From: Haloferax volcanii DS2
GTDB taxonomy: Archaea; Halobacteriota; Halobacteria; Halobacteriales; Haloferacaceae
Length of the DNA: 32,000 nt
Direction: 5' to 3'
Assembly (NCBI RefSeq): GCF_000025685.1
Contig: NC_013966.1
Span: forward strand, 90,001-122,000
Under the pieces are notes generated by a model, which was not told the origin of the DNA, did not search any database, and was given only the letters and a program-made list of their open reading frames with translations. How positions within the stretch are numbered: position 1 is the stretch's first letter; each line of letters opens with the position of its first letter. This document shows positions 3,050 through 26,586 of the stretch, piece by piece. Made by a program: the position numbers and the translations under genes.

Positions 3050-4483
3050 ATGGGTCTTGAGATCAGACCTACAATGTCGAGTGACTCACGTTGGCCTACC
3101 ATTGGCATCCCTAATATCCACCCTACATGGGTTTCACCTCTCTTTGGGATACTTGTGGCTGCAGCTATCTTTCGGTTCGTTCCACTCGCGCGAGATGCGA
3201 GTCTCATGCTCGCTATCACAGTGTTTTGCGTCGTGTTGTGGATCAAGTCACCGGTTGAGCCGTGGTTCACAGCACTCCTCGGCATCGGATTAATCGGAGT
3301 CGCATTCTCGCCTGGGTTAGCATTGACAGGGTTTCGTTCGCCGGCGACGTGGCTGGTCGCTGTTGGAATTCTCGTCGGAGAAGCTTCCCGTCAGAGTGGT
3401 CTGGCAAGGTTAGTAGAGACGCTTGCTCGCACCCGAATGCCGACCGCTGCCTCAACTGATGCCGTCGCTGCGTTTCGATACCTACTCGTCGCCTTCTGCC
3501 TCGCTAGTCTCGCGCTGGCCGTCTTGATACCTTCTGCGCTCGTTCGGGTTCTCATTCTTGGGCCGATACTGCTCTCACTCGGCGACCTCTTCACTGAACG
3601 GCGAGCGAAAATTGGGCTCTTTCTCGGCCCACTGTTCGCGACGTTTTACGGTTCATCAGGCGTTCTGACTGGGGCTCTCGCGAACATCATCGTAACCGGG
3701 CTCGTCGAATCTACCACTGGCCTATCTATCTCATGGACTGAATGGCTACTCTGGGCCGGTCCCGTGATGGGAATCGGTCGCGTTCTGGTGGTAATCACCG
3801 TCACCTATCTCCTCTATCACCCGCGCGACAAGGGTTCCCTCGCCGCTCACGAACGAACTGCGAACGTTGGTGTGACATCCCAGCAGTTGAGAATGCTCGC
3901 CTTCCTCCTCGTTGGTGTAGCCATCTGGATGACGGACTTCTTACACGGACTCCATCCGTTATTCGGCGCGCTCGTGGTTGCACTCTTGGCGTTCGCTCCA
4001 AAGATTGGTGTTGTCGATTCGGACGCCATCTCTGAGGCCGATTTCTCGATCCTGTTCTTTTTCGGCGCGATATTCGCAATCGCCGCGGGTCTCCAGCAGA
4101 CTGGGTTCACCGATCTGGCTGCCGAAGCGCTCCTCTCACAGTTGCCGAGCGATGCATCGCTCCCTATCGTTCTCGTATTCGTCGTCGTCGTCTCACAACT
4201 CCTCGCTCTGGTGATGGAGGGTCTTGCCGTCGCCAGTGTCCTCACACCAATTCTCACTTCATTTTCGAGTAGTATCGGAATCCCGTTGGTTCCAGTGGCG
4301 GTGATGGAGGCTGTGGCCCTCAATACCTACTTTTTCCCGTATCAATCGGCAGTTCTCGTGGCGATCCTCGGGATGGGAACTGTAGACAGTGTCGAATTGA
4401 CCCGCATCTCGAGTGCTATCGCTGCTGTGTCACTGCTATTTCTCGTTCCAGTACAAATCGGGGTGTTCGTGGTTTTCTTCTGA
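3050..4483 (+). CDS. multi-pass anion/organic-acid permease (ArsB/NhaD-DASS-like superfamily)
   Basis: 477-aa, very hydrophobic ORF with roughly 12 predicted TM segments and an internal two-lobe layout. Family assignment is from overall look only. Substrate unknown. Confidence 0.55.
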   Translation: MGLEIRPTMSSDSRWPTIGIPNIHPTWVSPLFGILVAAAIFRFVPLARDASLMLAITVFCVVLWIKSPVEPWFTALLGIGLIGVAFSPGLALTGFRSPATWLVAVGILVGEASRQSGLARLVETLARTRMPTAASTDAVAAFRYLLVAFCLASLALAVLIPSALVRVLILGPILLSLGDLFTERRAKIGLFLGPLFATFYGSSGVLTGALANIIVTGLVESTTGLSISWTEWLLWAGPVMGIGRVLVVITVTYLLYHPRDKGSLAAHERTANVGVTSQQLRMLAFLLVGVAIWMTDFLHGLHPLFGALVVALLAFAPKIGVVDSDAISEADFSILFFFGAIFAIAAGLQQTGFTDLAAEALLSQLPSDASLPIVLVFVVVVSQLLALVMEGLAVASVLTPILTSFSSSIGIPLVPVAVMEAVALNTYFFPYQSAVLVAILGMGTVDSVELTRISSAIAAVSLLFLVPVQIGVFVVFF

Positions 4484-4974
4484 CGTGCTCTGGTTCTCTT
4501 CGGCGTGAGTGACCGTTTGTACGTGCCCCAAGAATAGGTGTTGTTGATTATTAAAATTCAGAAATACCGAAGCGGATGTAGGCGAAGTGAAGTTCCGCGC
4601 ACCGTCAGAGTTCACAGTACAGGTCCGACGAAAACGATGGTGATAGTCGATTTGTCCATCGGTTAGAACGCACCGAAGATTGGCTGAACACGCAATATAC
4701 GTTCCACTCATAGTGACCCGACCTCTCCCCTGTCTACCACTTTCGAATTTATCGAAGCCACTGACTGACATAGCGTGTCGCTGTGTGAGTGAAATGCCTC
4801 TCTCCGTCAGATTTGCCCACACGACGGTAACTAATGATAATACGTACTGTTCCATGATTGATCCGGTTATTTCGAATCTACTCAGAACCGGACTCACTTG
4901 GTATTCTCCCCTCGAATCTAAGGAACGCAAAGAATGCGATGTCGGGGTTACGAATTACGAGAGAAACGTCTGGA

Positions 4975-6120
4975 TTAGAAGTTCTCGTAGATTATGTCAC
5001 GCTGTATCTCGCTCACGCCCTCGTAGATGAGCGGCATCCGAACGTCACGATAAACACGTCCGATTCGACTCTCGTCGAAGAGTCCGTGACCCCCGTGTAG
5101 TCGGATGGCTGTCTCGGCGCACTCCGCCGCAGTTTCGGTCGCGTGTAGTTTCGCCATCGAAGACCACTTCGCCGCGTCTTCGCCCGATTCCATCCGTTCG
5201 ACGGTGTGCCAGAGTAACGTTCGAGCACTCTCGAACTTCGTCCGCATCTGGGCGAGGTCGTGTCTGACGGACTGAAAGTCCGAGACGGGCCCGCCGAACT
5301 CTTCCCTCTCGTGTACGAACTCCCAAGCCTCTTCGATGGCCGCCGCCGCTAGTCCGATTCCCTGCGCGGCAACGCGTGTTCGGCCGTGGTTGAAGAATTC
5401 GGCAACCATCCGGAACCCGTTCCCTCGTTCTCCGACGAGGTTCTCGTGGGGGACCCGACAGTCGGTAAACGTTATGTGTGACTGTTTCGAGGCGTGCATC
5501 CCGATTTTCTCTGGGACGTGTTCGGCGTCGTATCCGTCGCTATCAGTCGGGACGATTACCATCGAGTGGTTGTCGTGAGGTTTGTCACTCTCTTCCGTGC
5601 GAACGTATACGAGAATCCAATCCGCTTCGACGCCGTTCCCGATCCAGTATTTCTCGCCGTTTAATACCCATTCGTCCCCGTCCCTGACCGCTGTCGTCTC
5701 CATCCCCGCCAGATCGCTTCCCGTCTCGGGTTCAGAGATAGCCATCCCGGTGATTGCATCCCCCTCGGCGACCGAACGAAGGTATGTTTCTTTTTGATGA
5801 GGCGTCCCGAACTGTTCGAGAATCCCGGTACCGAAGCTCTGACCCATAAGCGCAAGTCCGATTCCCGCATCGGCGCGGAAGAACTCCTCCGCGGCGGCAA
5901 CGGCCTCGCTTAAGGAACGACCGGCACCCCCATACTCGGTCGAGATTTCCTGTGCGACCAGTTCCTCTTCGCGCGCGGCTTCGACGATATCTATCGGGTA
6001 CTCCCCCGACTCGAAGTACGCCCCTGCGACCGGTTCAATGTTCTCTCGCGCGAAAGTCCGCGCTCGTCGCTTTACCGTTTTAGCGTTTGCTGGTACCATG
6101 GCCTCGTCTAACAGGTCCAT
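4975..6120 (-). CDS. acyl-CoA dehydrogenase
   Basis: 381 aa with a classic ACAD layout: ...TGMAISEPETGSDLAGMETTAVRDGDEWVLNGEKYWIGNG... and C-terminal ...IYEGVSEIQRDII. Confidence 0.9.
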   Translation of the reverse strand: MDLLDEAMVPANAKTVKRRARTFARENIEPVAGAYFESGEYPIDIVEAAREEELVAQEISTEYGGAGRSLSEAVAAAEEFFRADAGIGLALMGQSFGTGILEQFGTPHQKETYLRSVAEGDAITGMAISEPETGSDLAGMETTAVRDGDEWVLNGEKYWIGNGVEADWILVYVRTEESDKPHDNHSMVIVPTDSDGYDAEHVPEKIGMHASKQSHITFTDCRVPHENLVGERGNGFRMVAEFFNHGRTRVAAQGIGLAAAAIEEAWEFVHEREEFGGPVSDFQSVRHDLAQMRTKFESARTLLWHTVERMESGEDAAKWSSMAKLHATETAAECAETAIRLHGGHGLFDESRIGRVYRDVRMPLIYEGVSEIQRDIIYENF

Positions 6121-9945: not shown

Positions 9946-11091
9946 ATGGAGTTCGAGGTTCCAGCAGAGCAGCGAGCAGTACTAGAAGAGGTCCGCCAGT
10001 TCGGTGAGAACGAAATTCGACCGGTGGCGAGCGAGAACGACAGCGCGGAGCGGTATCCGTACGAGATTATGGAACAGGCCGCCGAACTGGGACTCATCGG
10101 TTCTCAGTTCCCAGTAGAGCACGGCGGCGTCGGGTACTCGCTGCTCGAACGGGCGTTTCTGACCGAAGAACTGTTCGCCATCGACCCCGGGACGGCGCTT
10201 TGTATCACCTCCGCTGACTTCGGAAGCGAGGCTATCCTCGCGTTCGGGACGGAGGCACAGAAGGAGACGTACCTCCCACCGGTCGCAACGGGTGAGGCGA
10301 TTATGGGTGCTGCCATCAGCGAACCACAGGCCGGTTCAGACGTGTCGTCTATCGCCACGCAAGCAGAGCGAGACGGCGACAAATGGGTCATCAACGGCAA
10401 CAAGATGTGGATTACGAATGGGAGTGTAGGCGATTACTTCGTCGTGCTCTGTGAGACGAACCCAGACGCTGAACGCCGACACGGTGGATTTTCGCAGATT
10501 ATCGTTGAGTCAGACCGCGACGGGTTCGATGCTGAAAAAATAACCGGGAAGATGGGGATGCGGGCCAGCGATACCGCCGAACTCATCCTCAACGACGTTC
10601 GTGTGCCCGCCGAGAACCTCGTCGGCGAGGTCGACGGGGGGTTCTACCAGCAGATGCAGTTCTTCGACGAGACGCGGACGATGGTGGCGGCTCAAGCCTT
10701 GGGGATCGCGCGTGGTGCCGCCGAACGCGCACTGGAGTACGCCCAGGAGCGCGAACAGTTCGGCCAGACGCTCAGCGGGTTCCAGGCGATTCAGCACAAA
10801 CTCGCCGAGATGTTTACGAACATCGAGGCTGCCCGACAACTCACGTACAAAGCCACGTGGGGCGTCGAGGAGGGGCATGACGACGACACCTCGCTCTCGT
10901 CGATGGCCAAGGAGTTCGCCTCTCGCGTCGCCGTCGACGTGACGAACGAAGCGGTGCAGATTCACGGCGGTTCGGGCTACGTCAACGACTTCGACGTCGA
11001 ACGATTTTACCGCGACGCGAAGATATCACAGATATACGAGGGAGCGACGGAGATTCAGAAGGGCATCATCGCGCGCGAACTGCTGTCGTAG
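9946..11091 (+). CDS. acyl-CoA dehydrogenase
   Basis: 381 aa, ACAD motifs ([39 protein letters not shown]; [17 protein letters not shown]). Paralog of 4975-6120. Confidence 0.9.
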
Positions 11092-15123: not shown

Positions 15124-15390
15124 CTACAGATAATCAAGGCAGAGTGCCTCGTGGTCGTGTCGCGTCGGCGTTCGCGGCGCGCCCACTCGCTTGCGCTCCG
15201 TGCGCTCGAACGACCGCCACTCGGGGCCGCGGTTGATGCCGTGGCCGTCGATGATGAGACCACAGGACTCACACCGTCGTTCACCAGCGTCTGTAATGAC
15301 CTGGCCGCCACACTCCGGACAGGAGGCGTTTCCACAGGATTTCCCGCACGATTCGTCGAACTGTCGCTCGTAGACATCTCGTGTCGCCAT
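15124..15390 (-). pseudogene. tfb: transcription initiation factor TFB, N-terminal zinc-ribbon/B-reader fragment only
   Basis: From ATG at 15390: MATRDVYERQFDESCGKSCGNASCPECGGQVITDAGERRCESCGLIIDGHGINRGPEWRSFERTERKRVGAPRTPTRHD. It then diverges into HEALCLDYL*. The two cyclin-fold core domains of a normal ~320-aa TFB are missing. The track start at 15519 runs through motif F and is unlikely. Confidence 0.7.
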
Positions 15391-15417
15391 CTCGAACACC
15401 GCGCGACGCAATTTAGT

Positions 15418-15447
15418 GCGCCCCGCACCCGTCAGGGGCTGAAAAAA
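15418..15447 (-). repeat. oligo-T + GC-hairpin motif, instance F (degenerate)
   Basis: Minus strand reads TTTTTT-CA-GCCCC-TGACGGGTGC-GGGGC-GC. It keeps the T-run and the GGGTGCG box. The hairpin end lies ~28 nt upstream of the TFB-fragment ATG. Confidence 0.5.
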
Positions 15448-15532
15448 CGCCGTTGCCGTCTCAAACAAGCAGGCTTCAGTTGGGGAGTCATTAAATGATT
15501 GAACCACAACACCAAACATGCTATAGTATTCG

Positions 15533-16039
15533 TTAGAAGTAATTACTCACTTTTGGGACCGAAAGCTGGTCAAGAGCGGCGTCTATCGCTGTCGTTAACT
15601 CGTCAAGTGAGTCGAAAAACCGGTTGCTCAACGCTGCTTGAAGCTGTCTCCAGCACTCCTCAACCGGGTTTAGTTCCGGCGAGTATGATGGAAGCGTCAC
15701 GAACGCGAGGTCGTCACGGGCCGCCAGGTCCGTGACGGCCGACGCTTGAAAGTACGGCGCACCATCTAGCACCACGAGCAAGTCATCTTCAAATTCTTTA
15801 CATAGTGCTAAAATGAAATGTTTCGCGTGTTCAGCGGTGACGTACTCCTCGAATCGTGAAAAGAAGCGATCACCGTCCTCGGTGATCGCGCCCAGCAGAC
15901 ACGTCCAGTCGCGTTGACCAGAGAGTTTGACCGAGGGCCGCGTGCCACGTGGAAACCACGCGGCACGCGGCTCAACTTGCACGGATTTCTTGGTTTGGTC
16001 GATACAGACTACGGTGGCGTCCATCTTCCGCCGCTTTTT
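15533..16039 (-). CDS. IS630-family transposase, DDE catalytic part (orfB, reached by -1 shift at the A7 run)
   Basis: The -1 frame continues ...KKRRKMDATVVCIDQTKK...LLVVLDGAPYFQA...LPSYSPELNPVEECWRQLQ (DDE_3 type). The joined product, ...YEELKKKRRKMDATV..., would be ~335 aa, normal for IS630 transposases. The track ORF 15533-16210 carries a non-coding 5' extension. Confidence 0.75.
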   Translation of the reverse strand, partial: KKRRKMDATVVCIDQTKKSVQVEPRAAWFPRGTRPSVKLSGQRDWTCLLGAITEDGDRFFSRFEEYVTAEHAKHFILALCKEFEDDLLVVLDGAPYFQASAVTDLAARDDLAFVTLPSYSPELNPVEECWRQLQAALSNRFFDSLDELTTAIDAALDQLSVPKVSNYF

Positions 16040-16533
16040 TTGAGTTCTTCGTAGAACGCTTCTTGCTCGTCTTCGTCGGCTTCGGCGGCTGTACGGCGTG
16101 GTTTCTGATATCTCAATCCCGCTTCTTTCAGCAACCGCCGACAACTCGGGATTGAATACTCGACGCCGTATGTTTCCTCGAGAAATTCTTGGGCAAGCGC
16201 CGGCGTCCACGCCGGCGCGTCGAGCCCAACTTCTTCAGGAGGTTCGTGGACGGTCTCTTGAAATTCGCTTTGCTGTGTTTCTGAAAGCTTTCGCTTCCTT
16301 CCGGTTCGTTTATCGTCAGAAACGGCTTGCTCAAGCGACTCGTCGGTGTCGAGTCGCTTGAGCCAGCTGTAGATCGTCCGGCGTTGAACACCGTACCACT
16401 CGGCTAGCTCGGTCTGCGTGACACCGTTCTTGTACGCGATAGCCGCTAAGAGCCGTTGTGTCGGCTTCTTTCCGTCCACGTTGTCGAGAGTGTCTTGTAA
16501 TTCCTCGACGGAAATCTCGTCGAGATGGTTCAC
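16009..16533 (-). CDS. IS630-family transposase, N-terminal HTH part (orfA)
   Basis: 174 aa with HTH motifs (GVTQTELAEWYGVQRRTIYSWLKR...). It ends just after an A7 run (T7 on the + strand, 16035-16041). Confidence 0.85.
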   Translation of the reverse strand: MNHLDEISVEELQDTLDNVDGKKPTQRLLAAIAYKNGVTQTELAEWYGVQRRTIYSWLKRLDTDESLEQAVSDDKRTGRKRKLSETQQSEFQETVHEPPEEVGLDAPAWTPALAQEFLEETYGVEYSIPSCRRLLKEAGLRYQKPRRTAAEADEDEQEAFYEELKKSGGRWTPP

Positions 16534-16622
16534 TATCTCTTACAAGAGTCTCTGAGTAAAAAGTTCTAACGATTACTATAGTAGGTGGATTATCGTTGCA
16601 GGCTCGACGTGTCACACAAGAC

Positions 16623-16646
16623 GCGCCCTGTTCTGCAACGGGTGCG
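16623..16646 (+). repeat. partial inverted-orientation copy of the hairpin motif
   Basis: The + strand reads GCGCCC-tgttctgcaac-GGGTGCG, the same arms as motifs A-C but on the opposite strand. It has an 11-nt loop and no T-run. Confidence 0.3.
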
Positions 16647-16830
16647 AAATCGCGTACCAAGCCATCCGCGCCCACCCCTTGATAACTTCCTCGTGGGCCT
16701 TGTGCCCACCGAGTTTCGTACACTCGACACTCGAGTTATTGGATATCTGTGAGTCACGGTTTGCGGACTGCGTTAGTAGGAGTTTCTAACCAGGCAAACA
16801 GTTAACTGAGACAACAAATGACAGTCTTGT

Positions 16831-17016
16831 ATGAGTAGCTCACCATGGACTGCGAACTTTGCGACTGAAAAAAGCAAATGTGCAGCCGATGTCCAACGCC
16901 TCCTCGAGAAGTACCCGCAACCGGTCGTCTACGAAGTCATGAGTGAACTGCTCCGACAAGAGATGCGCGAGCAGTTTGCTGGTGCGTACGCTGCGTCCCA
17001 GCAGTCCGACGACTAA
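16831..17016 (+). CDS. hypothetical small protein (61 aa)
   Basis: Only an ORF with acidic, helical-looking composition (…DVQRLLEKYPQPVVYEVMSELLRQEMREQF…). It is convergent with the SWIM gene. No recognisable domain. Confidence 0.3.
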   Translation: MSSSPWTANFATEKSKCAADVQRLLEKYPQPVVYEVMSELLRQEMREQFAGAYAASQQSDD

Positions 17017-17049
17017 TGGGTGATTGGTGACGTACGAAACCCCACACGA

Positions 17050-17457
17050 CTACTCAGACAGCTTACGCCGCCCAGCGTCGATACAGTTCCAACAAGGAAG
17101 AGCTTCAGAGAGCTGTTCACACTCGCAGGGCAGGTCTGCTGTGTCATCATCCCCGCACGATGTTGACCCACCATCTGCGACGACGCGCATCTTGACGGCG
17201 AGTTCGAGTATTCGTGGGCGAATCGCGACCGCAACTCGATGCTTACACGGACCGTTGCCGCTCGCATCAGCGGGACACGAACACGACTCGGGCACGCCGT
17301 CCTGAATTCGAACGCGGTACTCGTGCACGTCCGGATCGGTATAGCTCTCGTTGCGTACACGGACATCGCCATCAAGGAGTTCGAACGCGAACGCCTCGTA
17401 CTGCGCTCGCTTGAGAACACGCGTAGGTGGATCGAACTCTGGTAGTACAGGAATCAT
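17050..17457 (-). CDS. SWIM zinc-finger protein
   Basis: CxC...CxH SWIM signature (SCSCPADASGNGPCKHRVAV) plus a C-terminal Cys cluster (CECEQLSEALPCWNC). Start set at ATG 17457 (MIPVLPEF...). The track start at 17496 lies inside hairpin A. Confidence 0.75.
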   Translation of the reverse strand: MIPVLPEFDPPTRVLKRAQYEAFAFELLDGDVRVRNESYTDPDVHEYRVRIQDGVPESCSCPADASGNGPCKHRVAVAIRPRILELAVKMRVVADGGSTSCGDDDTADLPCECEQLSEALPCWNCIDAGRRKLSE

Positions 17458-17472
17458 GGTAGCCAGCGCGCA

Positions 17473-17503
17473 ATGCGCGCACCCCTTCGGGCGCATAGAA
17501 AAA
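17473..17503 (-). repeat. oligo-T + GC-hairpin motif, instance A
   Basis: Minus strand reads TTTTT-CTAT-GCGCCC-GAAG-GGGTGCGC. It lies between the stop at 17526 and the start at 17457. Confidence 0.7.
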
Positions 17504-17525
17504 CTGCGCCGGACGGCAGATGGGG

Positions 17526-18455
17526 TTAGACCGCGTCGAGTGTCGACAGAATCTCTTCGGCCGTCCCACTAATCCGACCCAGTCGCTCTTGCAGCACGTC
17601 TGTCTCGTCGCCCTGCCACGCCGCGAGATAGAACGCCGACCCACTCGCATCCAAGCCGAGGTATCGACCAACGACGTACGCAACGGCCTCCGCTTCAACC
17701 TCGCGTTTCGCCCGCTCGGTCGCGTCAGTAATATCGAAATGCAGAATCGCATGCGCGTACTCGTGGATGATCGTCGATGCGAGGTCTGCGCGATTCGACC
17801 GATCCTTCACTTCCACGAGTGGGGTGAGATCCTGGACACTCCGCGACTGGCAGACGCCCTTCGCCTCTCCATGTCGCCACTCATCGGGATCGACAATGCG
17901 GATGGTCACACCGAGGTCCGACGCGATGTTAGTGAGATCCTCAACGAGTGTGTCAGACTCACCGGTCGCCGCCGTATCCAACTCTGGAAGTGGTTCGCCC
18001 TCGGTCTGCGAAATGTCGAAGACTGGTGCAGGCTTGAAGCCCACGAGGCCCTCCGACCACTCTTCGGGCGGCGTCTCGTCGTACTCACACTCGCTGTTTT
18101 CGTGATAGCTCGGTGCGTTCCCACACTCGGGGCATTGGGTCGTGATGATCGGCACCCAAATCCAAATTGCCGACTCGCCTTCCTCGACGTATCGGTCGAA
18201 CTCTGCTTGCCACGTCCGGTAACCAGCAACCTTCGTCGCCTCAGGACACTGGAGGGTGATGAGGAGTGTGTTGCGGTGAGAGTAGTCGTGGAACTCGCTC
18301 TGGACGTCCAACCACGCTTGGAACTGCTCGCTCGCCCGAGCGTCGTCGACGTCGGCAGCGAGGTCTGCAAGCCATTGTTCGATCGTGCGATGCATCTCAT
18401 CGTGTCGCGTGTCGGTCTCGTCGAACGACACCGACGGAGAACTCGTTGTTGCCAT
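17526..18455 (-). CDS. ArdC-like protein: N-terminal ssDNA-binding (ArdC-N/DUF1738-like) domain plus C-terminal HExxH metallopeptidase
   Basis: From ATG 18455: MATTSSPSVSFDETD...YSHRNTLLITLQCPEATKVAGYRTWQAEFDRYVEEGESAIWIWVP (ArdC-N-like), an inserted CPECG...ECEYD zinc ribbon, and C-terminal ...IIHEYAHAILH...EVEAEAVAYVV (zincin). The track's 70-codon 5' extension overlaps the upstream gene and hairpin B. Confidence 0.7.
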   Translation of the reverse strand: MATTSSPSVSFDETDTRHDEMHRTIEQWLADLAADVDDARASEQFQAWLDVQSEFHDYSHRNTLLITLQCPEATKVAGYRTWQAEFDRYVEEGESAIWIWVPIITTQCPECGNAPSYHENSECEYDETPPEEWSEGLVGFKPAPVFDISQTEGEPLPELDTAATGESDTLVEDLTNIASDLGVTIRIVDPDEWRHGEAKGVCQSRSVQDLTPLVEVKDRSNRADLASTIIHEYAHAILHFDITDATERAKREVEAEAVAYVVGRYLGLDASGSAFYLAAWQGDETDVLQERLGRISGTAEEILSTLDAV

Positions 18456-18490
18456 TGGTTTCAGTTCTGATGCGTCCCTCCAGGACGCGC

Positions 18491-18516
18491 CGCACCCCTC
18501 TGGGGCGCACAAAAAA
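18491..18516 (-). repeat. oligo-T + GC-hairpin motif, instance B
   Basis: Minus strand reads TTTTTT-GT-GCGCCCC-AGA-GGGGTGCG. It lies between the stop at 18529 and the start at 18455. Confidence 0.7.
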
Positions 18517-18528
18517 CAGCGGGGCGAA

Positions 18529-18867
18529 CTACTGGTCGGTGTCCTCGCACTCGAGACTGTGAAGGTACTGTCGACACTCGCCGAACAGGCCGCTCGCAGT
18601 CGCCTCACCGGTCGTGAGGTGTCGAACCCACTCAATCGCCCAGCAGTACGCAGGATTGGACTCACCTGCCCCGTGGATGTACCACCAGCGAGCGGCTTTA
18701 AGCACGACGAGCGGATTCGTCGGCGGTTGTTCGCTCAGAAGAGACCACGTAATCGACTCGATTTCATCGGGAATATCGGCTCGGGTGAACTCCGAACGAT
18801 GCACGAGGTCGAGGTCGACTGGAATCTCGTCGATCGAGACGTCTGACTCTGTTTGTTGGTGACTCAT
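18529..18867 (-). CDS. hypothetical protein (112 aa)
   Basis: Acidic ORF, MSHQQTESDVSIDEIPVDLDLV...ARWWYIHGAGESNPAYCWAIEWV... The ATG at 18867 is preferred to the GTG at 18876. No recognisable domain. Confidence 0.6.
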   Translation of the reverse strand: MSHQQTESDVSIDEIPVDLDLVHRSEFTRADIPDEIESITWSLLSEQPPTNPLVVLKAARWWYIHGAGESNPAYCWAIEWVRHLTTGEATASGLFGECRQYLHSLECEDTDQ

Positions 18868-18900
18868 GGAGATCACGTCACACGGACTGTGTCTTCAGCC

Positions 18901-18924
18901 CGCACCCATCACGGGCGCAAAAAA
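18901..18924 (-). repeat. oligo-T + GC-hairpin motif, instance C
   Basis: Minus strand reads TTTTTT-GCGCCC-GTGAT-GGGTGCG. It lies between the stop at 18954 and the start at 18867. Confidence 0.7.
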
Positions 18925-18953
18925 TCTCGATGTCGCGCTAGTCCCGACCGACG

Positions 18954-19349
18954 CTATGCGAGGTGCGACACCTCCTCGGGTTCGGGTTCGTCAGCGAACT
19001 CGTTGCGCTTGACTGGCGTCCAGTCTTCAGTCGTGGTTGGTGCCCACCAATCGACGTGATAGTCACCGGGCGCACCGAGAATCTTAACGCGTGCTTCGTC
19101 GTCGGGAAGCGGCCGGCGAAGTTTCTCGTCGACGTGGAGATTCCACGTCGTCGTCGCGTCGAATGTGATGATGACCGCCTCATCGTACCCCCGCGACTCA
19201 GGTGACTCACGGCACGTCACGCTGGTATTGCACTCAGTGCAGAACACCCCCTCGAAGGGAATGTGCGTGAACGCTTCCGTGCCACACACCGGACACCACA
19301 GAAATTCGAACAGCGCCTCGTCGTGACGGAACACGCGCTCGAGACTCAT
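18954..19349 (-). CDS. zinc-ribbon protein of unknown function (131 aa)
   Basis: CPVCG...(13 residues)...CTEC zinc ribbon near the N-terminus, with an acidic C-terminal tail. Confidence 0.65.
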   Translation of the reverse strand: MSLERVFRHDEALFEFLWCPVCGTEAFTHIPFEGVFCTECNTSVTCRESPESRGYDEAVIITFDATTTWNLHVDEKLRRPLPDDEARVKILGAPGDYHVDWWAPTTTEDWTPVKRNEFADEPEPEEVSHLA

Positions 19350-19440
19350 CGATCATTCACCACCGTTGCAGGTGTCACGAGCGGGTGGTGTGGGAAGTGA
19401 GACAACTCGACTGCCAGCGTTGGAATTTGCATCTGTTACT

Positions 19441-19470
19441 GCGCCTCCGCCCCTTTGGGCGGCGCAAAAA
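19441..19470 (-). repeat. oligo-T + GC-hairpin motif, instance D
   Basis: Minus strand reads TTTTT-GCGCCGCCC-AAAG-GGGCGGAGGCGC. It lies between the stop at 19523 and the next starts (19432 micro-ORF, 19349). Confidence 0.65.
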
Positions 19471-19522
19471 CAACACCAAGCGCACCTCCTTCCTACTTGG
19501 TCGCTCCGTCTGTATCCACTGC

Positions 19523-19765
19523 TCACTCCGCGAGAATGTCGTCGTGTGAGGTCGTTCGAACGCGCTCGACAAACGCATGTGCAGCGGCGGCAGTCGAAAA
19601 CACCGACGCATCATAGCCAACAGAGCCACCGAACACAGTCCACTCGTCGGTCACCACACCACCGGACAGCGGCGTGTACTCGACACGATAGGTGTCAGCC
19701 ACGTCGTCGATGACGATTCGAACAGCAATACCACGATCAGGAAGTGTCTCTCTCAAGAATACCAT
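19523..19765 (-). CDS. hypothetical protein (80 aa)
   Basis: Acidic ORF starting 18 nt after the stop of the upstream gene. No recognisable domain. Confidence 0.55.
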   Translation of the reverse strand: MVFLRETLPDRGIAVRIVIDDVADTYRVEYTPLSGGVVTDEWTVFGGSVGYDASVFSTAAAAHAFVERVRTTSHDDILAE

Positions 19766-19783
19766 TGGCCACAGCCTCCAAAG

Positions 19784-20275
19784 TCAGTAATGGACATCAG
19801 CGGGAACGATCCACAGATGATCGTTCGACCCGACGAGCTGCTCAAGTCGCTCGCGATGCCGAACGCCGTCAGCGAACTCGTCGTAGAGGTACACCGCCGG
19901 CCCACGGTACGTCCCGAGATTGTGGCACGCATGCCTGACGAGGTCCTCATCGCGCATGATCGCCGCAGCGTCGAGGTCGTCAACGCCCTCTCGAACACGC
20001 TCGAGATTCCGCTCGAACTCGCGTGTCGTCGCCTGCCACCCGCTCTCGAGGAGTTCCTGGCCATCCTCCGAGCCAACGGGTGCTGCAACTGGGAGGTCAC
20101 CCCACCGGGCGCTGCCGGCGACCGTTGTTGAGTCGTCATCAAACGTCACATAGTAGTCGAACACCGCCTCGGCGTGCGGTGCAGCACCCACCAGTTGGTC
20201 GAATACGTCAGCGGCCCGCGAGAGGGCTTGGTCTGTTGTCGATGCAGTCACGAGTGCGTAGATTACTTGGTGCAT
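19784..20275 (-). CDS. hypothetical protein (163 aa), first gene of the cassette
   Basis: Frame verified codon by codon by hand from 19784 to 20275. MHQVIYALVTAST...FDYYVTFDDDSTTVAGSARWGDLP...LWIVPADVHY. I believe similar proteins occur widely as uncharacterised proteins, but I cannot name a family. Confidence 0.7.
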   Translation of the reverse strand: MHQVIYALVTASTTDQALSRAADVFDQLVGAAPHAEAVFDYYVTFDDDSTTVAGSARWGDLPVAAPVGSEDGQELLESGWQATTREFERNLERVREGVDDLDAAAIMRDEDLVRHACHNLGTYRGPAVYLYDEFADGVRHRERLEQLVGSNDHLWIVPADVHY

Positions 20276-20321
20276 TCGTCGTCACCTCGCCGACTCAGGA
20301 GTCGATGTCTGTCCGACCCCC

Positions 20322-20357
20322 TGCGCCGGCGCCCATCGCCGGCGCACACAAACACAA
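20322..20357 (-). repeat. GC-hairpin motif, instance E (perfect 10-bp stem, interrupted T-rich tract)
   Basis: Minus strand reads TTGTGTTTGTG-TGCGCCGGCG-ATGGG-CGCCGGCGCA. The stem end lies ~47 nt upstream of the ATG at 20275. Confidence 0.6.
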
Positions 20358-20729: not shown

Positions 20730-22127
20730 CAGTACCTCACAAAGCATCCTCGCCTAGCTGTCTCTGAAGCCTGAATTCTGTGGCCGAGCGGTTGCATTGG
20801 CGGTCTCGACGACAGAATCATGGACGGATCGGCGGAGAGCCGTCGCTGTCGGCGGCGGCTGCCGCCGACGCGACAGCGTCGCCACTCCCACTGTTGGCTA
20901 GCCCGGTCGGGAGTTACCGGTGGAACCGGTCGTCTGGTGGTCGGTTCGCGGGGACGGCCCGACGCACCGCGAGGGCCGTCCACGCTGCTCGACGGACCAT
21001 ATTGATGAACTCCTTGAACGACCACTCCCAGAGGCGACGCCCCCCACGGCGGGGCGTCGCCACGTACTCCCAGTGCAAATACCGCCAGACGTTCTGTAAC
21101 AGCAGGCTCACCACGACGTACAACAGCCGTACGACCGGATTTTGTGTCGAGGTCGTCGCGATACTTTGCTCGGAGAGTCGATAGCTTGCCTCGATACCGA
21201 AGCGTTTCGCGTAGTGGTATCGAGCGTCCCGTGGTGAGTCGATGAACGGCGCGTCAGCGGCGTAGCCGTGACGCGCCACGCCATGTTCGTCGTACCGTCC
21301 GTTCTGGTAGGTACAGTCGATGTAGACGGGAAACTCGACGGTCCAGCTGTGACCGTCGAGTTTCGCTGTCAGACTGTGCTGAATCACGCGACTCCACCCT
21401 TCTGAGAGTTCTCGCTTGATCGTCCGTCCCCAGCGGACGATCGGCATGACGTAGGCGTGGTTGTGCGCCTGAAGCAGCGTCAAACACTTGCTGTCGTAGA
21501 ATTCGCGGTCAAGATAGACGGCCTTGACACCGAGGTCAAGGCCGTCGAGAATACCGAGGAACTCTGCGAGGACACTGCTGGCGGTGTCGCCGTCTTCGAG
21601 ACGGCGCACCGCCAGCGTGTAGCGTTTGTTCTTCACGCGTGCGTACAGTGTCGCGTACGCGTGAAACGCGGTGGTTCCACGCTTCGCTTGTGAGTGATAC
21701 AGGCCGTCTGTATCGTCTTCGTCGCCGTAGTAGGGCCGCAGGTGGAGGTCTGCGCAGACCTCCACCTGCTGGGGAAGGACGTCGAGAACGTCTTTCTGGA
21801 GGAGCGTGTTCCCGATTTGTTCGAGCGTCTCGAGGTCGAACTTGGTGCGGAGATGGTAGAGAACCGAGTTTTCGTGAGGTGCATCTTCGCTTCTCTTGCA
21901 GAGTGTAGAGACCGAGGTCCCGTCGGCGCAGGCGCCGACGAGGACCTCGTAGATGTCTTCAGCATCGAGTTCAGCGTTTTCAGCGAGTGAGAGAGCAACT
22001 TCCTCGTCAAGAGAGTTGACGAGGAAGTTAAGGAGCTGGTCCTCGTGGATTTCATCGTCTGTTTGCTGGTTGTTGGACACATCTTCAGCAAGCAGACCTT
22101 CTAACTAAACGGCTTTGTGAGGTACTG
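20730..22127 (-). mobile_element. ISH3-family insertion sequence (1398 bp) with 5-bp target duplication AGACT
   Basis: 16-bp perfect terminal inverted repeats: CAGTACCTCACAAAGC at 20730-20745 and its reverse complement at 22112-22127. AGACT is present at 20725-20729 and at 22128-22132. Removing the IS and one AGACT restores an intact 136-codon ORF. Confidence 0.9.
20914..22080 (-). CDS. ISH3-family transposase
   Basis: 388 aa with a GTG start, MSNNQQTDDEIHEDQLLNFLV...YLDREFYDS...FGIEASYRL. Typical haloarchaeal ISH3-group DDE transposase. Confidence 0.9.
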   Translation of the reverse strand: MSNNQQTDDEIHEDQLLNFLVNSLDEEVALSLAENAELDAEDIYEVLVGACADGTSVSTLCKRSEDAPHENSVLYHLRTKFDLETLEQIGNTLLQKDVLDVLPQQVEVCADLHLRPYYGDEDDTDGLYHSQAKRGTTAFHAYATLYARVKNKRYTLAVRRLEDGDTASSVLAEFLGILDGLDLGVKAVYLDREFYDSKCLTLLQAHNHAYVMPIVRWGRTIKRELSEGWSRVIQHSLTAKLDGHSWTVEFPVYIDCTYQNGRYDEHGVARHGYAADAPFIDSPRDARYHYAKRFGIEASYRLSEQSIATTSTQNPVVRLLYVVVSLLLQNVWRYLHWEYVATPRRGGRRLWEWSFKEFINMVRRAAWTALAVRRAVPANRPPDDRFHR

Positions 22128-23347: not shown

Positions 23348-23815
23348 CTACGCTGATGCGGGCGACGAAGACCCCTCATCACGCGGCAGACCGAACTCAA
23401 CCTCAATCCGGACCGTATCGTAGGGGACGTACGGCTTCTTTGCGCGACCATCCTTCTCGAAGTGGACGATATCGTACTCAGCTAGTAGGTGTAGATCGTC
23501 GTGCACATCGTGGACGTCGCGCTCCAAGCGACTAGCCAGTGCGCGGATACTCTCGGGCGGGCGTTCCATCACCTCTTCGAGGAGTTCCATCCGCCGGTCG
23601 GTTAGCAGTTGGCGGAGCCGCGTCCGATCCTCGAAGTTGACGACATGCGGTACCTCTTCACCCTGCTCCCACCGTTCGGCCCGCTCAAGAGCCGCCGCCT
23701 GCGCCTGTTCTGCTGGGAGCGACGTGATACGGAGAGTCGAAGGGTACTCGACCTCGTCCGGGTCGGGAGTGAATTCGTCGTGCGTCGGTTCAGTGTCAGT
23801 TGGTTCGTTGCTCAT
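23348..23815 (-). CDS. HTH DNA-binding protein (winged-helix; antitoxin-like partner)
   Basis: 155 aa: acidic N-terminus, then ...LRQLLTDRRMELLEEVMERPPESIRALASRLERDVHDVHDDLHLLAEYDIVHFEKDGRAKKP... (wHTH). It overlaps the upstream gene by 20 nt. Confidence 0.75.
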   Translation of the reverse strand: MSNEPTDTEPTHDEFTPDPDEVEYPSTLRITSLPAEQAQAAALERAERWEQGEEVPHVVNFEDRTRLRQLLTDRRMELLEEVMERPPESIRALASRLERDVHDVHDDLHLLAEYDIVHFEKDGRAKKPYVPYDTVRIEVEFGLPRDEGSSSPASA

Positions 23816-24104
23816 AGATCTCGTTCACCTCGGTTTGGAAATCGTTGACTAGGTCGGACAGCCCTGTGAACTCCAACTTCATGATGTCGCCCTCGGGTGT
23901 ATGTCGGTGGTGTCGACCAACATCCAAGTGGTACGGCGAGTTATCATACCGCAGGAGTGTGTCGCCGTCAGCGTCCATGTACTGAAAGCTGTATTTCAGT
24001 CCCTGCGGGAAGTCTTCGCTTGAGGGGACCTGCCACGCGACCATCTCATACCGACTTCCATCTGGCTTCTCGTTTTCGTCCCGGTACACAACCCTTGCAG
24101 GCAT
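23796..24104 (-). CDS. small protein of the DUF6516-like type (putative toxin partner of the HTH protein)
   Basis: 102 aa: ...YEMVAWQVPSSEDFPQGLKYSFQYMDADGDTLLRYDNSPYHLDVGRHHRHTPEG... Family name is recalled from memory for this small-protein-plus-HTH pair in haloarchaea and is unverified. Confidence 0.6.
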   Translation of the reverse strand: MPARVVYRDENEKPDGSRYEMVAWQVPSSEDFPQGLKYSFQYMDADGDTLLRYDNSPYHLDVGRHHRHTPEGDIMKLEFTGLSDLVNDFQTEVNEIYEQRTN

Positions 24105-24232: not shown

Positions 24233-25627
24233 CATCTGTGTTCGGTTAAGCTCTAACCTCCGTTCTGAATGCTTCAGCTACTCGTTCGCTGAGTAAGAGG
24301 CGTGATTTCTCTGGTTGGCGTGCGTTGCAAAACATGAGCTCAGCCAAGTTCGGCGGTGGATGTCCGAACGACTGGGCTAGATCTTCGAGGATGAGCTGGG
24401 CGAAAGACCGGAAGGTCTTCGCCCAGCGTTCTCGTGGAAACATCGTTTCTGGGTGCATCCTCTGAAAGACGCCAAGCAAGGCTCTGCTGACCGTGAGCGT
24501 CAGCAGAGCCGCTACCACCAGCAACTCCACGATTGCTGGATTGCTTGTCTGGAACTTCTCCAGCCCGTACATCGATTTCAGCTCACGGAACAGCACTTCT
24601 ACTTCCCACCGTACACCGTACAACGCTGCGACTTGTTCCGGCGTGAACTCATCTGGGAGGTTCGTGATGTACAGGTGATAGTCGTCGGTGTCCTCGTTGC
24701 GGACACCGACGACGCGGAACTCTATCGTCGCACTCGAATGCTTCTCACCGTACGGACGCCGTTTGAAGCTCACCTCGGCGGTTACATCGATAATCTCGCG
24801 TGTAAGACCACCGAGAACATCCTGAAGACGACGGTCTGGTAAGGAAATGGCGCGCCCGCGCCATTTCCGACGTGCCTCTGTGATTCGTGGGTTTGCGTTC
24901 GTCTTCAGTCGACTCAAAAAGAAGCCGCCGTTCTCCTCGATGAGTGCGAACCGACGATAGCTGTAGAAGCCGAGATCGAACAGCAACAACCGCCCTCGCA
25001 GCCAGTTCCCCGTGCGGAACTGGCTGCTCTCGTGGCTTCGTTCGTCGGTGAGTTCGAACCGCTCGATCGTCTGTTTCGTGAGGTTGTGGACGAGATGAAG
25101 TTTCGCGCCTGACTGGTCAGGATGCGTCGCTGGAAACTCGCTCAGGAGCCGATGCAACCGGAAAACGGTTGCATCGGCAATCATCACATCGCGGAACTGC
25201 TGGAGCTGCGGGGCGAGTGTGTGTGGCACTGCGACCTCCTCAAGAGCATGTTCGAGGAGGTCGCTGAGTAACTGTCCGAGTGCGGGTGTGAACCGATCGT
25301 AGAAGCTGGAACGGGAGAGCGTCTGATTGGTCGCTGCGGCGTAGGCACGTTGAAACCCCGCGATCGTGCGAGATTCGCCGCCGACGGCGAATCCCAAGAT
25401 GAGCGTCCAAACGAGGGCAGTAACATCGATTCGACGGTGGCGTTGGACGACATCGCGCTCGCGCGCGATGTCTTCGATAAGCTCTCCTGGAAAGAGCGAA
25501 GTGAGCCGCCGTCGAATAAGGTCTGGGGAGAGTTCCTTCAGCACAACCTCTCCCCACGCGTTCTACACCGATAACTTCGTCAACAGAGCGCAGTCTCTCG
25601 ATTTTGCTTCTTAACCGAACACGGATG
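24233..25627 (-). mobile_element. IS4-family (ISH8-like) insertion sequence, 1395 bp, 9-bp target duplication GTCCGTACC
   Basis: 18-bp terminal inverted repeats: CATCTGTGTTCGGTTAAG (24233-24250) versus the reverse complement of 25610-25627 (CATCCGTGTTCGGTTAAG), one mismatch. GTCCGTACC is present at 24224-24232 and 25628-25636. Confidence 0.85.
24246..25544 (-). CDS. IS4-family transposase
   Basis: 432 aa, MLKELSPDLIRRRLTSLFPGELIEDIARERDVVQRHRRIDV...VMIADATVFRL...LLLFDLGFYSY...YGVRWEVEVLFRELKS (DDE with YREK-like motif). Confidence 0.9.
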   Translation of the reverse strand: MLKELSPDLIRRRLTSLFPGELIEDIARERDVVQRHRRIDVTALVWTLILGFAVGGESRTIAGFQRAYAAATNQTLSRSSFYDRFTPALGQLLSDLLEHALEEVAVPHTLAPQLQQFRDVMIADATVFRLHRLLSEFPATHPDQSGAKLHLVHNLTKQTIERFELTDERSHESSQFRTGNWLRGRLLLFDLGFYSYRRFALIEENGGFFLSRLKTNANPRITEARRKWRGRAISLPDRRLQDVLGGLTREIIDVTAEVSFKRRPYGEKHSSATIEFRVVGVRNEDTDDYHLYITNLPDEFTPEQVAALYGVRWEVEVLFRELKSMYGLEKFQTSNPAIVELLVVAALLTLTVSRALLGVFQRMHPETMFPRERWAKTFRSFAQLILEDLAQSFGHPPPNLAELMFCNARQPEKSRLLLSERVAEAFRTEVRA

Positions 25628-25650: not shown

Positions 25651-26586
25651 GCTCTGGTGAATCACTAGACGGCGTCGGTTTCGACCGGTAGAATTTGGAA
25701 GATGAAGCGGGAAACCGTCGATGCTCTATGTCGAAAATCTCCCGCTTCACGAAGAAGGCGGTCACGTTGGCTAAAAATGTTGTTGGTGACCGAGGCGAAG
25801 TCGCCGCCCCCGAAGGGGGTGGCGGCTTCGCCGACTACGCTCTCGTATCGCTGCACTGTCTGCGGATTTACCTCGATGAGTCGTACCGCAACGCACTGGA
25901 TCTGCTGAGCGAAATGCCGCATATTCTCGCCGAGATCGGCCTCGAAGAGGGCGATCTCCCTGATCACTCGACACTAGTTAAGGCGTTTGATAGGTTTCAG
26001 ATGAAGGTCTGGCGAGTGCTGCTGCGCCTGTCGGCGCAGCTGCACGACCCCTCGGGTCACGCCGCCATCGATGCCACCTTTTTTGACCGCGAAAACGCTA
26101 GCAAGCACTACTGCCGCCGCACGAATTACCACGTTCAGACACTCAAAGCGACGGCTCTCGTCGATACGCAAACGCAAGCTGTTCTCGACGTTCATTGTAC
26201 GACCGAGAAGACCCACGACACACAACTCGGCTGGCAGGTCGCCTGCCGCAACGCAGGCGACCTGCACAGCCTCGCCGCTGACAAAGGCTACGACTGGATG
26301 CAGTTACGCGAAAAACTACGCGAGGAAGGCGTGAGACCGCTGATTAAACATCGTATCTTCCGGCCCATCGACCACGCGCATAACGCGCGGGTCGATGGGC
26401 CTCGATACCGCCAGAGATCGATGTGTGAGACTGTCTTCTCGTCGATCAAGCGCACGCACGGCGACGCCGTGCGAGCGCGAACGTGGTACCGTGAATTTCG
26501 TGAACTCGTTTTGAAATGTGTCGTTCACAATATCAAGCGTGCCGCAACATAGCCAAATCAACCGCTGTATGGCGATTCACCAGAGC
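25651..26586 (+). mobile_element. IS5-family insertion sequence, 936 bp, 10-bp target duplication CTTTGAACGG
   Basis: 13-bp perfect terminal inverted repeats: GCTCTGGTGAATC at 25651-25663 and its reverse complement at 26574-26586. CTTTGAACGG is present at 25641-25650 and 26587-26596. Confidence 0.85.
25728..26552 (+). CDS. IS5-family transposase
   Basis: From ATG 25728: MSKISRFTKKAVTLAKNVV...AIDATFFDRENASKHY...LAADKGYDW...SMCETVFSSIKRTHGD (DDE). The track start at 25695 is a short 5' extension. Confidence 0.85.
   Translation: MSKISRFTKKAVTLAKNVVGDRGEVAAPEGGGGFADYALVSLHCLRIYLDESYRNALDLLSEMPHILAEIGLEEGDLPDHSTLVKAFDRFQMKVWRVLLRLSAQLHDPSGHAAIDATFFDRENASKHYCRRTNYHVQTLKATALVDTQTQAVLDVHCTTEKTHDTQLGWQVACRNAGDLHSLAADKGYDWMQLREKLREEGVRPLIKHRIFRPIDHAHNARVDGPRYRQRSMCETVFSSIKRTHGDAVRARTWYREFRELVLKCVVHNIKRAAT

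Follow-up and report, generated by a model that had tools for sequence, protein, structure and literature searches.

A repeated T-box and GC-rich hairpin module, a putative promoter and 5′ leader, ahead of genes of a conserved haloarchaeal plasmid gene set

Introduction

Within a stretch of 32,000 nucleotides (nt) of the Haloferax volcanii DS2 plasmid pHV4 (RefSeq assembly GCF_000025685.1, contig NC_013966.1, positions 90,001 to 122,000 of the forward strand; hereafter the window, the whole stretch analyzed), a series of minus-strand genes is accompanied by six copies of a short element in which a T-rich box precedes a GC-rich hairpin. This arrangement raises the question whether the element serves the end of the gene behind it, the start of the gene ahead of it, or the joint between both. 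A first-pass annotation, made from the sequence alone, had placed a copy at every gene boundary of a co-directional cassette and had considered oligo-U termination combined with a 5′ hairpin, a protein-binding site, attC-like recombination sites, and single-stranded DNA elements as in plasmid leading regions. Here we describe the element as part of a larger conserved module and favor, with about equal measures of confidence and doubt, the view that each copy is a putative promoter plus 5′ leader which heads its own transcription unit and has been copied before the genes of one set.

The locus bears on a long-standing open question, namely whether the many TFB and TBP paralogs of haloarchaea have sigma-like roles with promoter classes of their own. 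The module is a sharply defined and widely conserved DNA or RNA signature. Across at least 10 genera it is physically linked to a single clade of plasmid-borne TFBs and to a constant group of partner genes, and it is present on pHV4 of the model organism H. volcanii, for which genetic tools are available, in a region that is silent. If it acts as RNA, it would represent a novel leader element of archaea that can adopt either of two folds, which would also be rare. Either way, it delimits a conserved, previously undescribed "early gene" module of haloarchaeal plasmids.

Results

Six copies of the element on the minus strand

The six copies, termed A to F, were all recovered on the minus strand where the first-pass annotation had put them (Table 1). 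A, B, C, D, and F are strong copies, and E is a degenerate sixth. The covariance model R1, run filter-free across all 32 kb, scored the five strong copies at 30–44 bits and E marginally, and it detected nothing else. Copy E has no clean T-run, yet it keeps the family core TGCGCC-GGC-GAT-GGGCGC-C-GGCGCA and is identical across eight Haloferax loci. In a mechanical scan, runs of at least five T on either strand were tested for a GC hairpin of at least 5 bp no more than 6 nt downstream. Such a hairpin followed five of the 18 minus-strand runs, all five located within 15.4–19.5 kb, and none of the 13 plus-strand runs. The pattern TTTTT-N0-6-CCC-N3-6-GGGYGS has four matches in the window compared to 0.00 expected from 100 dinucleotide-preserving shuffles, far above chance.

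The earlier remark that the window holds no further copy except a partial inverted one agrees with the model scan. This partial core in the opposite orientation has neither a T-box nor a model match and sits about 185 nt upstream of a plus-strand open reading frame (ORF) of 61 amino acids. A search of the window with the Rfam covariance models at gathering thresholds gave 0 matches. As had been noted, the order of T-run first and hairpin second is the reverse of an intrinsic terminator, and a scan for bacterial-type promoters and terminators (14.5–21.5 kb) listed none of the six sites.

Architecture of the module

The conserved module comprises about 75 bases and is longer than the T-run and its hairpin. 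It consists of a T-rich box, a C-rich arm, the bases nGAn, the near-invariant GGGTGCGG, a G-rich arm, and a second hairpin. An alignment of 37 non-identical copies from the window and 18 genome loci gave the consensus G-T-n-TTTTT(T) - 0-4 nt - GC(G/C)CC(C) - nGAn - GGGTGC - GG(G/C)GC, in which the spacing from T-box to core is rigid, GA and GGGTGCGG are almost invariant, and the T-box logo reads TTTT(W)T. Over the interval from -60 to +70 this box is the sole AT-rich peak (0.94 AT compared to 0.2–0.5 elsewhere). In the 126 unique gene contexts described below, 64% of the T-boxes contain at least five consecutive T and 30% are A-interrupted (TTTAT or TTTTAT); in many copies the box has decayed to TTTAT, TTTGTG, or TTGTT while the core is retained. 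On the upstream side, conservation extends only about 14 nt beyond the T-box, also in copies whose more distant context differs.

In many copies, the second hairpin is followed by a linker of 8–12 nt to the start codon, which is conserved across gene families as G(A/T)TTCGAG-ATG and variants thereof (for example at 15401–15381 of the window and at the loci L013, L014, and L016). The whole stretch up to the ATG has evidently been copied as one unit.

Association with downstream start codons

The module belongs to the downstream start codon and not to the upstream stop codon. This follows from the distance between core and ATG, from the contexts found in relatives, from copy F, and from the absence of a copy behind the last gene. 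The hairpin-to-ATG distance had been described as variable (15–50 nt), whereas measured from the core it is 21–36 nt for A, B, C, and F and mostly 26–36 nt in relatives, with family-specific values. A co-directional ORF ends within 150 nt upstream in only 51 of the 126 unique contexts. Copy F lies in a divergent intergenic region with an annotated opposite-strand gene adjoining, and no copy is present downstream of g6, the last of the six genes g1 to g6. The 18-nt gap between g1 and g2 likewise contains none, so that the copies do not mark every gene boundary. The related claim that each copy sits between one stop and the next start applies to A–D, which lie 12–50 nt past a stop codon, but neither F nor E is located between two co-directional genes.

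Copy D is 97 nt away from the ATG of g3 compared to about 30 nt for the other copies. A small ORF of 28 codons begins 8 nt after D, and its stop codon overlaps the g3 start at 19349 (ATGA); this ORF may explain the larger distance.

About 220 copies were found, distributed over at least 10 genera of haloarchaea and also present in hypersaline metagenomes, and every one has the orientation of its downstream gene. The 18 genome loci together with the complete plasmid pBNX82-4 of Haloferax alexandrinus gave 71 model matches, 71 of them on the gene-coding strand. A metagenome search with a 22-base exact core yielded 91 hypersaline loci with 149 model matches, always co-oriented within a locus. The gene contexts were assigned by ORF-context rules (lower-GC region), and among the 126 unique ones the downstream gene was a TFB paralog in 40, ArdC/LtrC-like in 35, a SWIM gene in 20, a DUF8013 gene in 12, and a member of the "MGHRALIAY" family in eight. 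On plasmids of Halorhabdus, Natrinema pellirubrum, Halorussus, and Haloplanus, the copies ahead of TFB paralogs and neighboring genes are divergent, their core reading GGGTGA and their T-box TTTAT, and in all genera examined the module stands ahead of the element's own TFB gene. The 22-base pattern had no match in IMG/VR viral contigs, and a scan of viral contigs with a 14-base pattern gave only chance single matches. Logan contigs in which g4 starts or ends near the repeats probably reflect assembly breaks and were not used as transcript ends.

The T-run could also concern the upstream gene. Termination at T stretches is established in H. volcanii, where T5C terminates 95% of transcripts (PMC7237163), and genes located behind a T5-6 box would consequently need a promoter of their own. 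Judged from these data, the T5-6 boxes probably also terminate the upstream gene. It is improbable, however, that the module is primarily a terminator, with the oligo-T ending transcription of the upstream gene and the GC-rich dyad making this efficient by slowing RNA polymerase or by binding a roadblock protein. The proportion of boxes with at least five T and the position of A–D shortly behind stop codons agree with this idea, but the element tracks the downstream gene, is absent past the last one, occurs where there is nothing to terminate (F and the pBNX82-4 copies), and keeps its core in many copies whose T-box decays. Published 3′-end tables have no entry at pHV4 105.44, 107.50, 108.51, 108.92, or 109.47 kb, an absence that is uninformative in a silent region. 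From the proposed combination of oligo-U termination and 5′ hairpin, a stabilizing 5′ hairpin remains viable; termination is at most a secondary function of the T5-6 versions.

The gene content around the copies differs among relatives. The junction between the ArdC-like gene and copy A measures 22 nt in the window, but several relatives carry an AT-richer non-coding spacer of 0.5–0.9 kb, Haloferax gibbonsii LR2-5 an 8-kb metabolic/transport insert, and the second pHV4 copy of the cassette an HD hydrolase gene (variable-junction coordinates L002 5930–6467, L142 4046–12013, L238 2349–3307). On contig_27 of H. gibbonsii ATCC 33959 (L003 4384–4566), the deletion of g3 has left D directly next to C; this D-C unit of 97 bp occurs there as a tandem duplication with N at the joint, possibly an assembly artefact at repeats.

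The loss of g3 between D and C and the changing content of the ArdC-SWIM junction (0, 0.5, or 8 kb, or an HD hydrolase gene) are the observations in favor of attC-like cassette-boundary recombination sites. However, none of these changes breaks at a hairpin: the end-points lie elsewhere for the g3 deletion as well as for the spacer of 0.5 kb, the insert of 8 kb, and the HD hydrolase gene, and the last of these is not accompanied by an additional copy of the element. At attC sites, by contrast, gene content changes exactly at the site. Moreover, the elements stand at gene heads, whereas attC sites mark the 3′ end of promoterless cassettes; their length is 20–26 nt compared to the 57–141 nt of the imperfect attC hairpins; and no integrase or attI adjoins them. 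We therefore give this reading next to no credence.

A putative promoter and 5′ leader

The TATA consensus of haloarchaea is TTWT centered at -27/-28 with WW at -10/-11 (PMC2151090). The T-box of the module matches TTWT and is the sole AT-rich element upstream of the genes. The first-pass annotation had taken the distance to the ATG as an argument against a simple promoter, but the evidence speaks for the opposite, namely the fixed geometry to the ATG, the contexts that lack a co-directional upstream gene, the T-box as the only AT-rich element from -60 to +70, and the TTTAT types, with their proportion and their occurrence in distant genera.

In the proposed mechanism, the T-rich box would be the TATA box. 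With this box at -27/-28, the GC-rich block of C-arm, nGAn, GGGTGCGG, and G-arm would fill the positions -23 to -4 with its sole invariant T at -11, and canonical spacing would put the start site 3–4 nt after the G-arm. Such a GC-rich promoter should melt poorly and stay silent, and it would fire only with an element-encoded factor acting on the block. This might be an activator, namely the co-resident TFB paralog, or else a repressor that departs, and the whole set would be under one switch. In Haloferax, the T5–T7 box may in addition stop upstream transcription and insulate each gene, as the published T5 termination data suggest. The leader would carry the second hairpin, whose geometry is seen in the copies and which may function in stability or translation. 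The genes placed under the module, which code for the TFB paralog, the ArdC/LtrC-like protein, the SWIM protein, DUF7567, DUF8013, and DUF7995 proteins, and the "MGHRALIAY" family, form a conserved haloarchaeal plasmid or integrated-element set.

A binding site for a protein, one of the roles considered at the outset, remains viable. The TFB paralog is itself encoded behind the module and is the obvious candidate for the factor at the GC-rich core. A more far-reaching proposal, which we regard as unlikely, is that the module represents the cognate promoter class of the mobile-element TFB. The TFB would then recognize T-box and GGGTGCGG block, including that of its own gene, and switch on a silent "entry/establishment" set (ArdC-like anti-restriction, SWIM, and others). 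If true, archaeal RNA polymerase would be taken over in the manner of a sigma factor, and the takeover would have a defined DNA signature.

The cassette is situated at the end of HVO_A0017–A0108 (92 genes), which is reported to be the largest region that H. volcanii leaves untranscribed in each of four conditions (PMC6490895). Such silence agrees with promoters that depend on a specific factor or are repressed, and it accounts for the lack of 3′-end entries at the T-boxes. In the literature, we found no work on ArdC-type genes in haloarchaea and no study of the cassette genes, and the papers on H. gibbonsii LR2-5 offer nothing usable about them; of their locus tags only HVO_A0108 is named, as the end of the silent region (PMC6490895).

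Folding and covariation of the module

Each unit can form three helices. In the inner hairpin, the C-arm pairs with GGGTGC including one G-U pair; in the outer stem, it pairs with the G-arm and encloses a conserved loop of 10–12 nt; the second hairpin joins UGCGGGGC to a GCCUCGCA-like strand farther downstream. Formation of the outer stem excludes the second hairpin and vice versa, whereas the inner and second hairpins are compatible and, abutting each other, form the minimum-energy fold in most copies. The strand asymmetry ascribed earlier to G-U wobble pairs was confirmed: of 21 diverse copies, 19 folded more stably on the coding strand than on the complementary one (mean -4.2 kcal/mol).

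The outer stem and the second hairpin of the TFB family show covariation. Across 127 distinct copies, the outer stem was 86.6% paired compared to 43–62% for slid partners, with 28 double changes versus 7 in shuffles. Pair types at the outer positions were GC/CG/GU and CG/GC/UA, compensatory insertions were present, and the arms varied as GCCCC/GGGGC, GCGCC/GGCGC, GCTCC/GGAGC, ATGCGC/GCGCAT, and CCCCCC/GGGGGG. A partner-swap permutation with 11 family representatives gave p ~0.06, a weak test because all arms are drawn from a small GC-rich vocabulary; the counts from larger alignments were clearer. The second hairpin of the TFB family has 10 pairs and was 95.5% paired compared to 34–51% for slid partners, with two compensatory and four wobble-type changes. 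In 110 contexts, the best partner helix of TGCGGGGC scored 6.1 versus 4.4 in shuffles, and its 3′ strand ended 9–13 nt before the ATG. G-U pairs made up 25% of these pairs.

Three other explanations of the folds were discarded on inspection. A kink-turn bound by L7Ae would not fit the single GA and the bulge on the wrong side. As a Shine-Dalgarno mimic, GGGGUG can pair with the anti-Shine-Dalgarno sequence, but it is located 26–36 nt from the AUG. Supercoil-driven hairpin extrusion that shortens the TATA-to-ATG distance for leaderless starts would leave inconsistent residual spacings of 17–32 nt.

Several points weigh against the promoter and leader interpretation. There is no CGAAA-type TFB recognition element (BRE) in the 14 nt upstream of the T-box but only a purine at -1 (G 0.69, A 0.30) and an otherwise weak GC-rich signal. 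The published 3′-end tables list no end at any T-box, the region being silent in published data. The covarying stems and the wobble bias of the coding strand argue for an RNA (or single-strand) fold, whereas with a canonical TATA-to-start distance the RNA would begin too far downstream to include the 5′ arm, the core, or the second hairpin's 5′ strand. Finally, a second hairpin that ends about 10 nt before the AUG resembles a constraint at the mRNA level.

The main rival, which we consider less likely, is that the whole unit (U-tract, both hairpins, about 10 nt, and AUG) is transcribed from a promoter farther upstream and acts as an RNA switch or processing site. This would account better for the covariation, for the bias in wobble pairs, and for the fixed hairpin-10 nt-AUG geometry. 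In one state, pairing of C-arm and G-arm would present the conserved loop nGAnGGGUGC; in the other, the C-arm would pair with the core GGG, and UGCGGGGC with the GCCUCGCA that directly precedes the AUG. Translation or stability would be set by a protein or ligand that selects one of these states. Alternatively, cleavage in the U-tract could release mRNAs with a protective 5′ hairpin. Beside the pairing frequencies, double changes, and compensatory insertions of the outer stem, this idea is supported by the paired and covarying second hairpin of the TFB family, by the partner helix of TGCGGGGC with its position near the AUG and its share of G-U pairs, and by the stability of the coding strand with two abutting hairpins mostly as the minimum-energy fold. 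It is opposed by the lack of a conserved AT-rich promoter upstream, by the onset of conservation only about 14 nt before the T-box, and by the T5-7 tract, which should end most transcripts before the hairpins are made. In addition, the copies are paralogous and all GC-rich, and the partner-swap test of the 11 families gave only p ~0.06. The C-arm nearly repeats the downstream strand in direct orientation, and part of the "covariation" could therefore be inherited. There is also no Rfam match.

The strand-specific fold could also act in single-stranded DNA during plasmid transfer or replication, with the hairpins as priming sites or single-stranded DNA promoters as in bacterial leading regions. 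The ArdC-like gene and a plasmid context typed as MPF_T are in line with this, but the T-box lies outside the hairpin, so that no duplex promoter would be rebuilt, and the folds comprise 20–45 nt. The wobble pairs favor the coding, i.e., non-template, strand, which cannot serve as template, and no single-stranded DNA transfer is known for these plasmids. A role of this kind is very improbable.

Gene set and neighborhood

The positions of the copies, genes, and neighboring features are compiled in Table 1. The cassette proteins are identical to pHV4-encoded proteins of H. volcanii DS2, and three published gene 3′ ends (HVO_A0096, HVO_A0110, and HVO_A0114) fit the offset of 90,000 between window and pHV4 coordinates. 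The genes g1 to g6 probably correspond to HVO_A0108 to HVO_A0103, and the cassette spans approximately HVO_A0099 (TFB fragment) to HVO_A0108 (g1), all tags being assigned by position.

The TFB gene behind copy F is an N-terminal fragment that ends after about 80 codons (~15130–15160) at the junction with a plus-strand fatty-acid degradation operon encoding acyl-CoA dehydrogenases, a 3-hydroxyacyl-CoA dehydrogenase/enoyl-CoA hydratase, and an AMP-binding enzyme. By this truncation, the present copy of the cassette has lost its own TFB, while the second pHV4 cassette (L238, contig AOHU01000050) retains one at 4445–5371 of the locus. An intact TFB of 308 amino acids, with a Zn ribbon and two cyclin repeats, is encoded behind the module in relatives and in this second copy; domain matches of the paralog were TFIIB repeat (1.6e-32) and Zn_Ribbon_TF.

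In all Haloferax relatives, the 61-amino-acid ORF is conserved in the interval that separates the SWIM gene from the TFB gene. An IS630-family insertion is located between the region of this ORF and copy F. It has terminal inverted repeats (CTA(C)TATAGTA.TCGTTAGAA) with TA at each end, a transposase in two frames, and copies with 83–94% identity on more than 40 haloarchaeal plasmids.

Beyond the cassette, an ORF for a TumE-family toxin overlaps the HVO_A0114-family ORF, which by appearance forms a toxin-antitoxin-type pair, and two DDE transposase genes adjoin it. Published RNA 3′ ends at pHV4 111305, 111506, 111818, and 111899 fall inside the ORF of HVO_A0110. Their spacing (201, 312, and 81) equals that of four ends at 81428–82022. 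This points to a stretch of about 1 kb that is present twice on pHV4, and some reads may be multi-mapped.

Table 1. Positions of the module copies, cassette genes, and neighboring features in the window (window coordinate + 90,000 = pHV4 coordinate)
Feature	Position	Strand	Details
Copy E	20318–20357	minus	Upstream of g1 (DUF7995, ATG 20275); 11.5 bits, E = 0.23; degenerate T-box TTGTGTTTGTG; stem TGCGCCGGCG 20346–20337, loop ATGGG, stem CGCCGGCGCA 20331–20322; core GAT-GGGCGC
Copy D	19435–19474	minus	T-box 19470–19466; 30.9 bits; inner stem CCGCCC/GGGCGG 19462–19447; outer stem TGCGCC/GGCGCA
Copy C	18884–18928	minus	Upstream of g4 (DUF8013, ATG 18867); T-box 18924–18919; 38.1 bits; first hairpin GCGCCC-GUGAU-GGGUGC 18918–18902; second hairpin GGGCUG-AAGACA-CAGUCC 18901–18884
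Copy B	18472–18517	minus	Upstream of ArdC/LtrC-like gene (ATG 18455); T-box 18516–18511; 40.8 bits; first hairpin GCGCCCC-AGA-GGGGUGC; alternative outer stem GTGCGCC/GGCGCGT; second hairpin GCGUCC-UGGAG-GGACGC 18488–18472
Copy A	17466–17505	minus	Upstream of SWIM gene (ATG 17457); T-box 17503–17499; 30.6 bits; first hairpin GCGCCC-GAAG-GGGUGC 17494–17479; alternative outer stem ATGCGC/GCGCAT; second hairpin GCGC-AUUGC-GCGC 17478–17466
Copy F	15401–15450	minus	Upstream of truncated TFB paralog (ATG 15380); T-box 15447–15442; 43.6 bits, top-scoring copy; arms GCCCC/GGGGC around loop TGACGGGTGC; second hairpin GCG-G-GGCGCA ... UGCGUC-G-CGC 15426–15401
g1	20275–19784	minus	DUF7995
g2	19765–19523	minus	No family
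Small ORF after D	19432–19346	minus	28 codons
g3	19349–18954	minus	DUF7567
g4	18867–18529	minus	DUF8013
g5	18455–17526	minus	ArdC-N + M78/IrrE-like ("LtrC-like")
g6	17457–17050	minus	SWIM zinc finger
61-amino-acid ORF	16831–17016	plus	No Pfam match
Partial core	16623–16646	plus	GCGCCC-tgttctgcaac-GGGTGCG
IS630-family insertion	~15521–16583	minus	Transposase frames 16533–16009 and 16210–15533
TFB paralog, N-terminal fragment	15130–15380	minus	Zn ribbon CPECGG
HVO_A0096	9946–11091		Published 3′ end stop + 1332 = 102,423
HVO_A0110	20914–22080		Published 3′ end stop + 3 = 110,911
Published RNA 3′ ends in HVO_A0110	21305–21899	minus	
HVO_A0114	23348–23815	minus	Published 3′ end stop + 28 = 113,320
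TumE-family toxin ORF	23796–24104 (minus strand)		
DDE transposase gene	24246–25544		
DDE transposase gene	25695–26552		

Discussion

Bacterial plasmids have global operator regulons in which KorB or ArdK sites are repeated at the backbone promoters. The module resembles these in that a short site is present at each gene of a set which includes an anti-restriction-type gene and the candidate regulator itself. It differs by the archaeal transcription system and by arms that vary yet stay complementary, which a duplex operator does not require. With bacterial intrinsic terminators it shares a GC-rich stem-loop adjoining a T/U run, but in reversed order.

Archaeal oligo-T terminators (T5C; Berkemer et al., 2020) are similar to the Haloferax copies in the T5–T7 run of the coding strand soon after stop codons. 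The module, however, is defined by the part behind the T-run and by the downstream gene, and many of its T-boxes are too short or too interrupted for termination. Like the canonical haloarchaeal promoter (Brenneis et al., 2007; Babski et al., 2016), it has a T-box that matches TTWT, and with canonical spacing the invariant T of GGGTGC would be at -11. It deviates from this promoter by the lack of a CGAAA-type BRE and by the presumed positions -23 to -4, which are nearly pure G+C and, unlike in ordinary promoters, strongly conserved.

The closest described case is that of the intergenic repeats of HF2 and other members of Haloferacalesvirus, which form class I (58 bp) and class II (29 bp), carry promoters with mapped starts, and showed reporter activity (Russ, Pfeiffer & Dyall-Smith, 2021; PMC8707807). 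Both are repeated intergenic families on haloarchaeal mobile elements, oriented to the downstream gene, with a TATA-like box at a fixed distance from conserved blocks, and in both sequence and position are kept among relatives. They share no sequence: the HF2 motifs are AT-rich (e.g., TCTTTAAGTC; PMC8707807), whereas the core described here is GGGTGCGG, and the T-box is followed first by a dyad-symmetric block of extreme GC content, the arms of which covary, and then by a leader hairpin. The module also differs in its occurrence on plasmids or integrated elements of at least 10 genera, in a gene set with a TFB paralog, and in its promoter role, which is putative.

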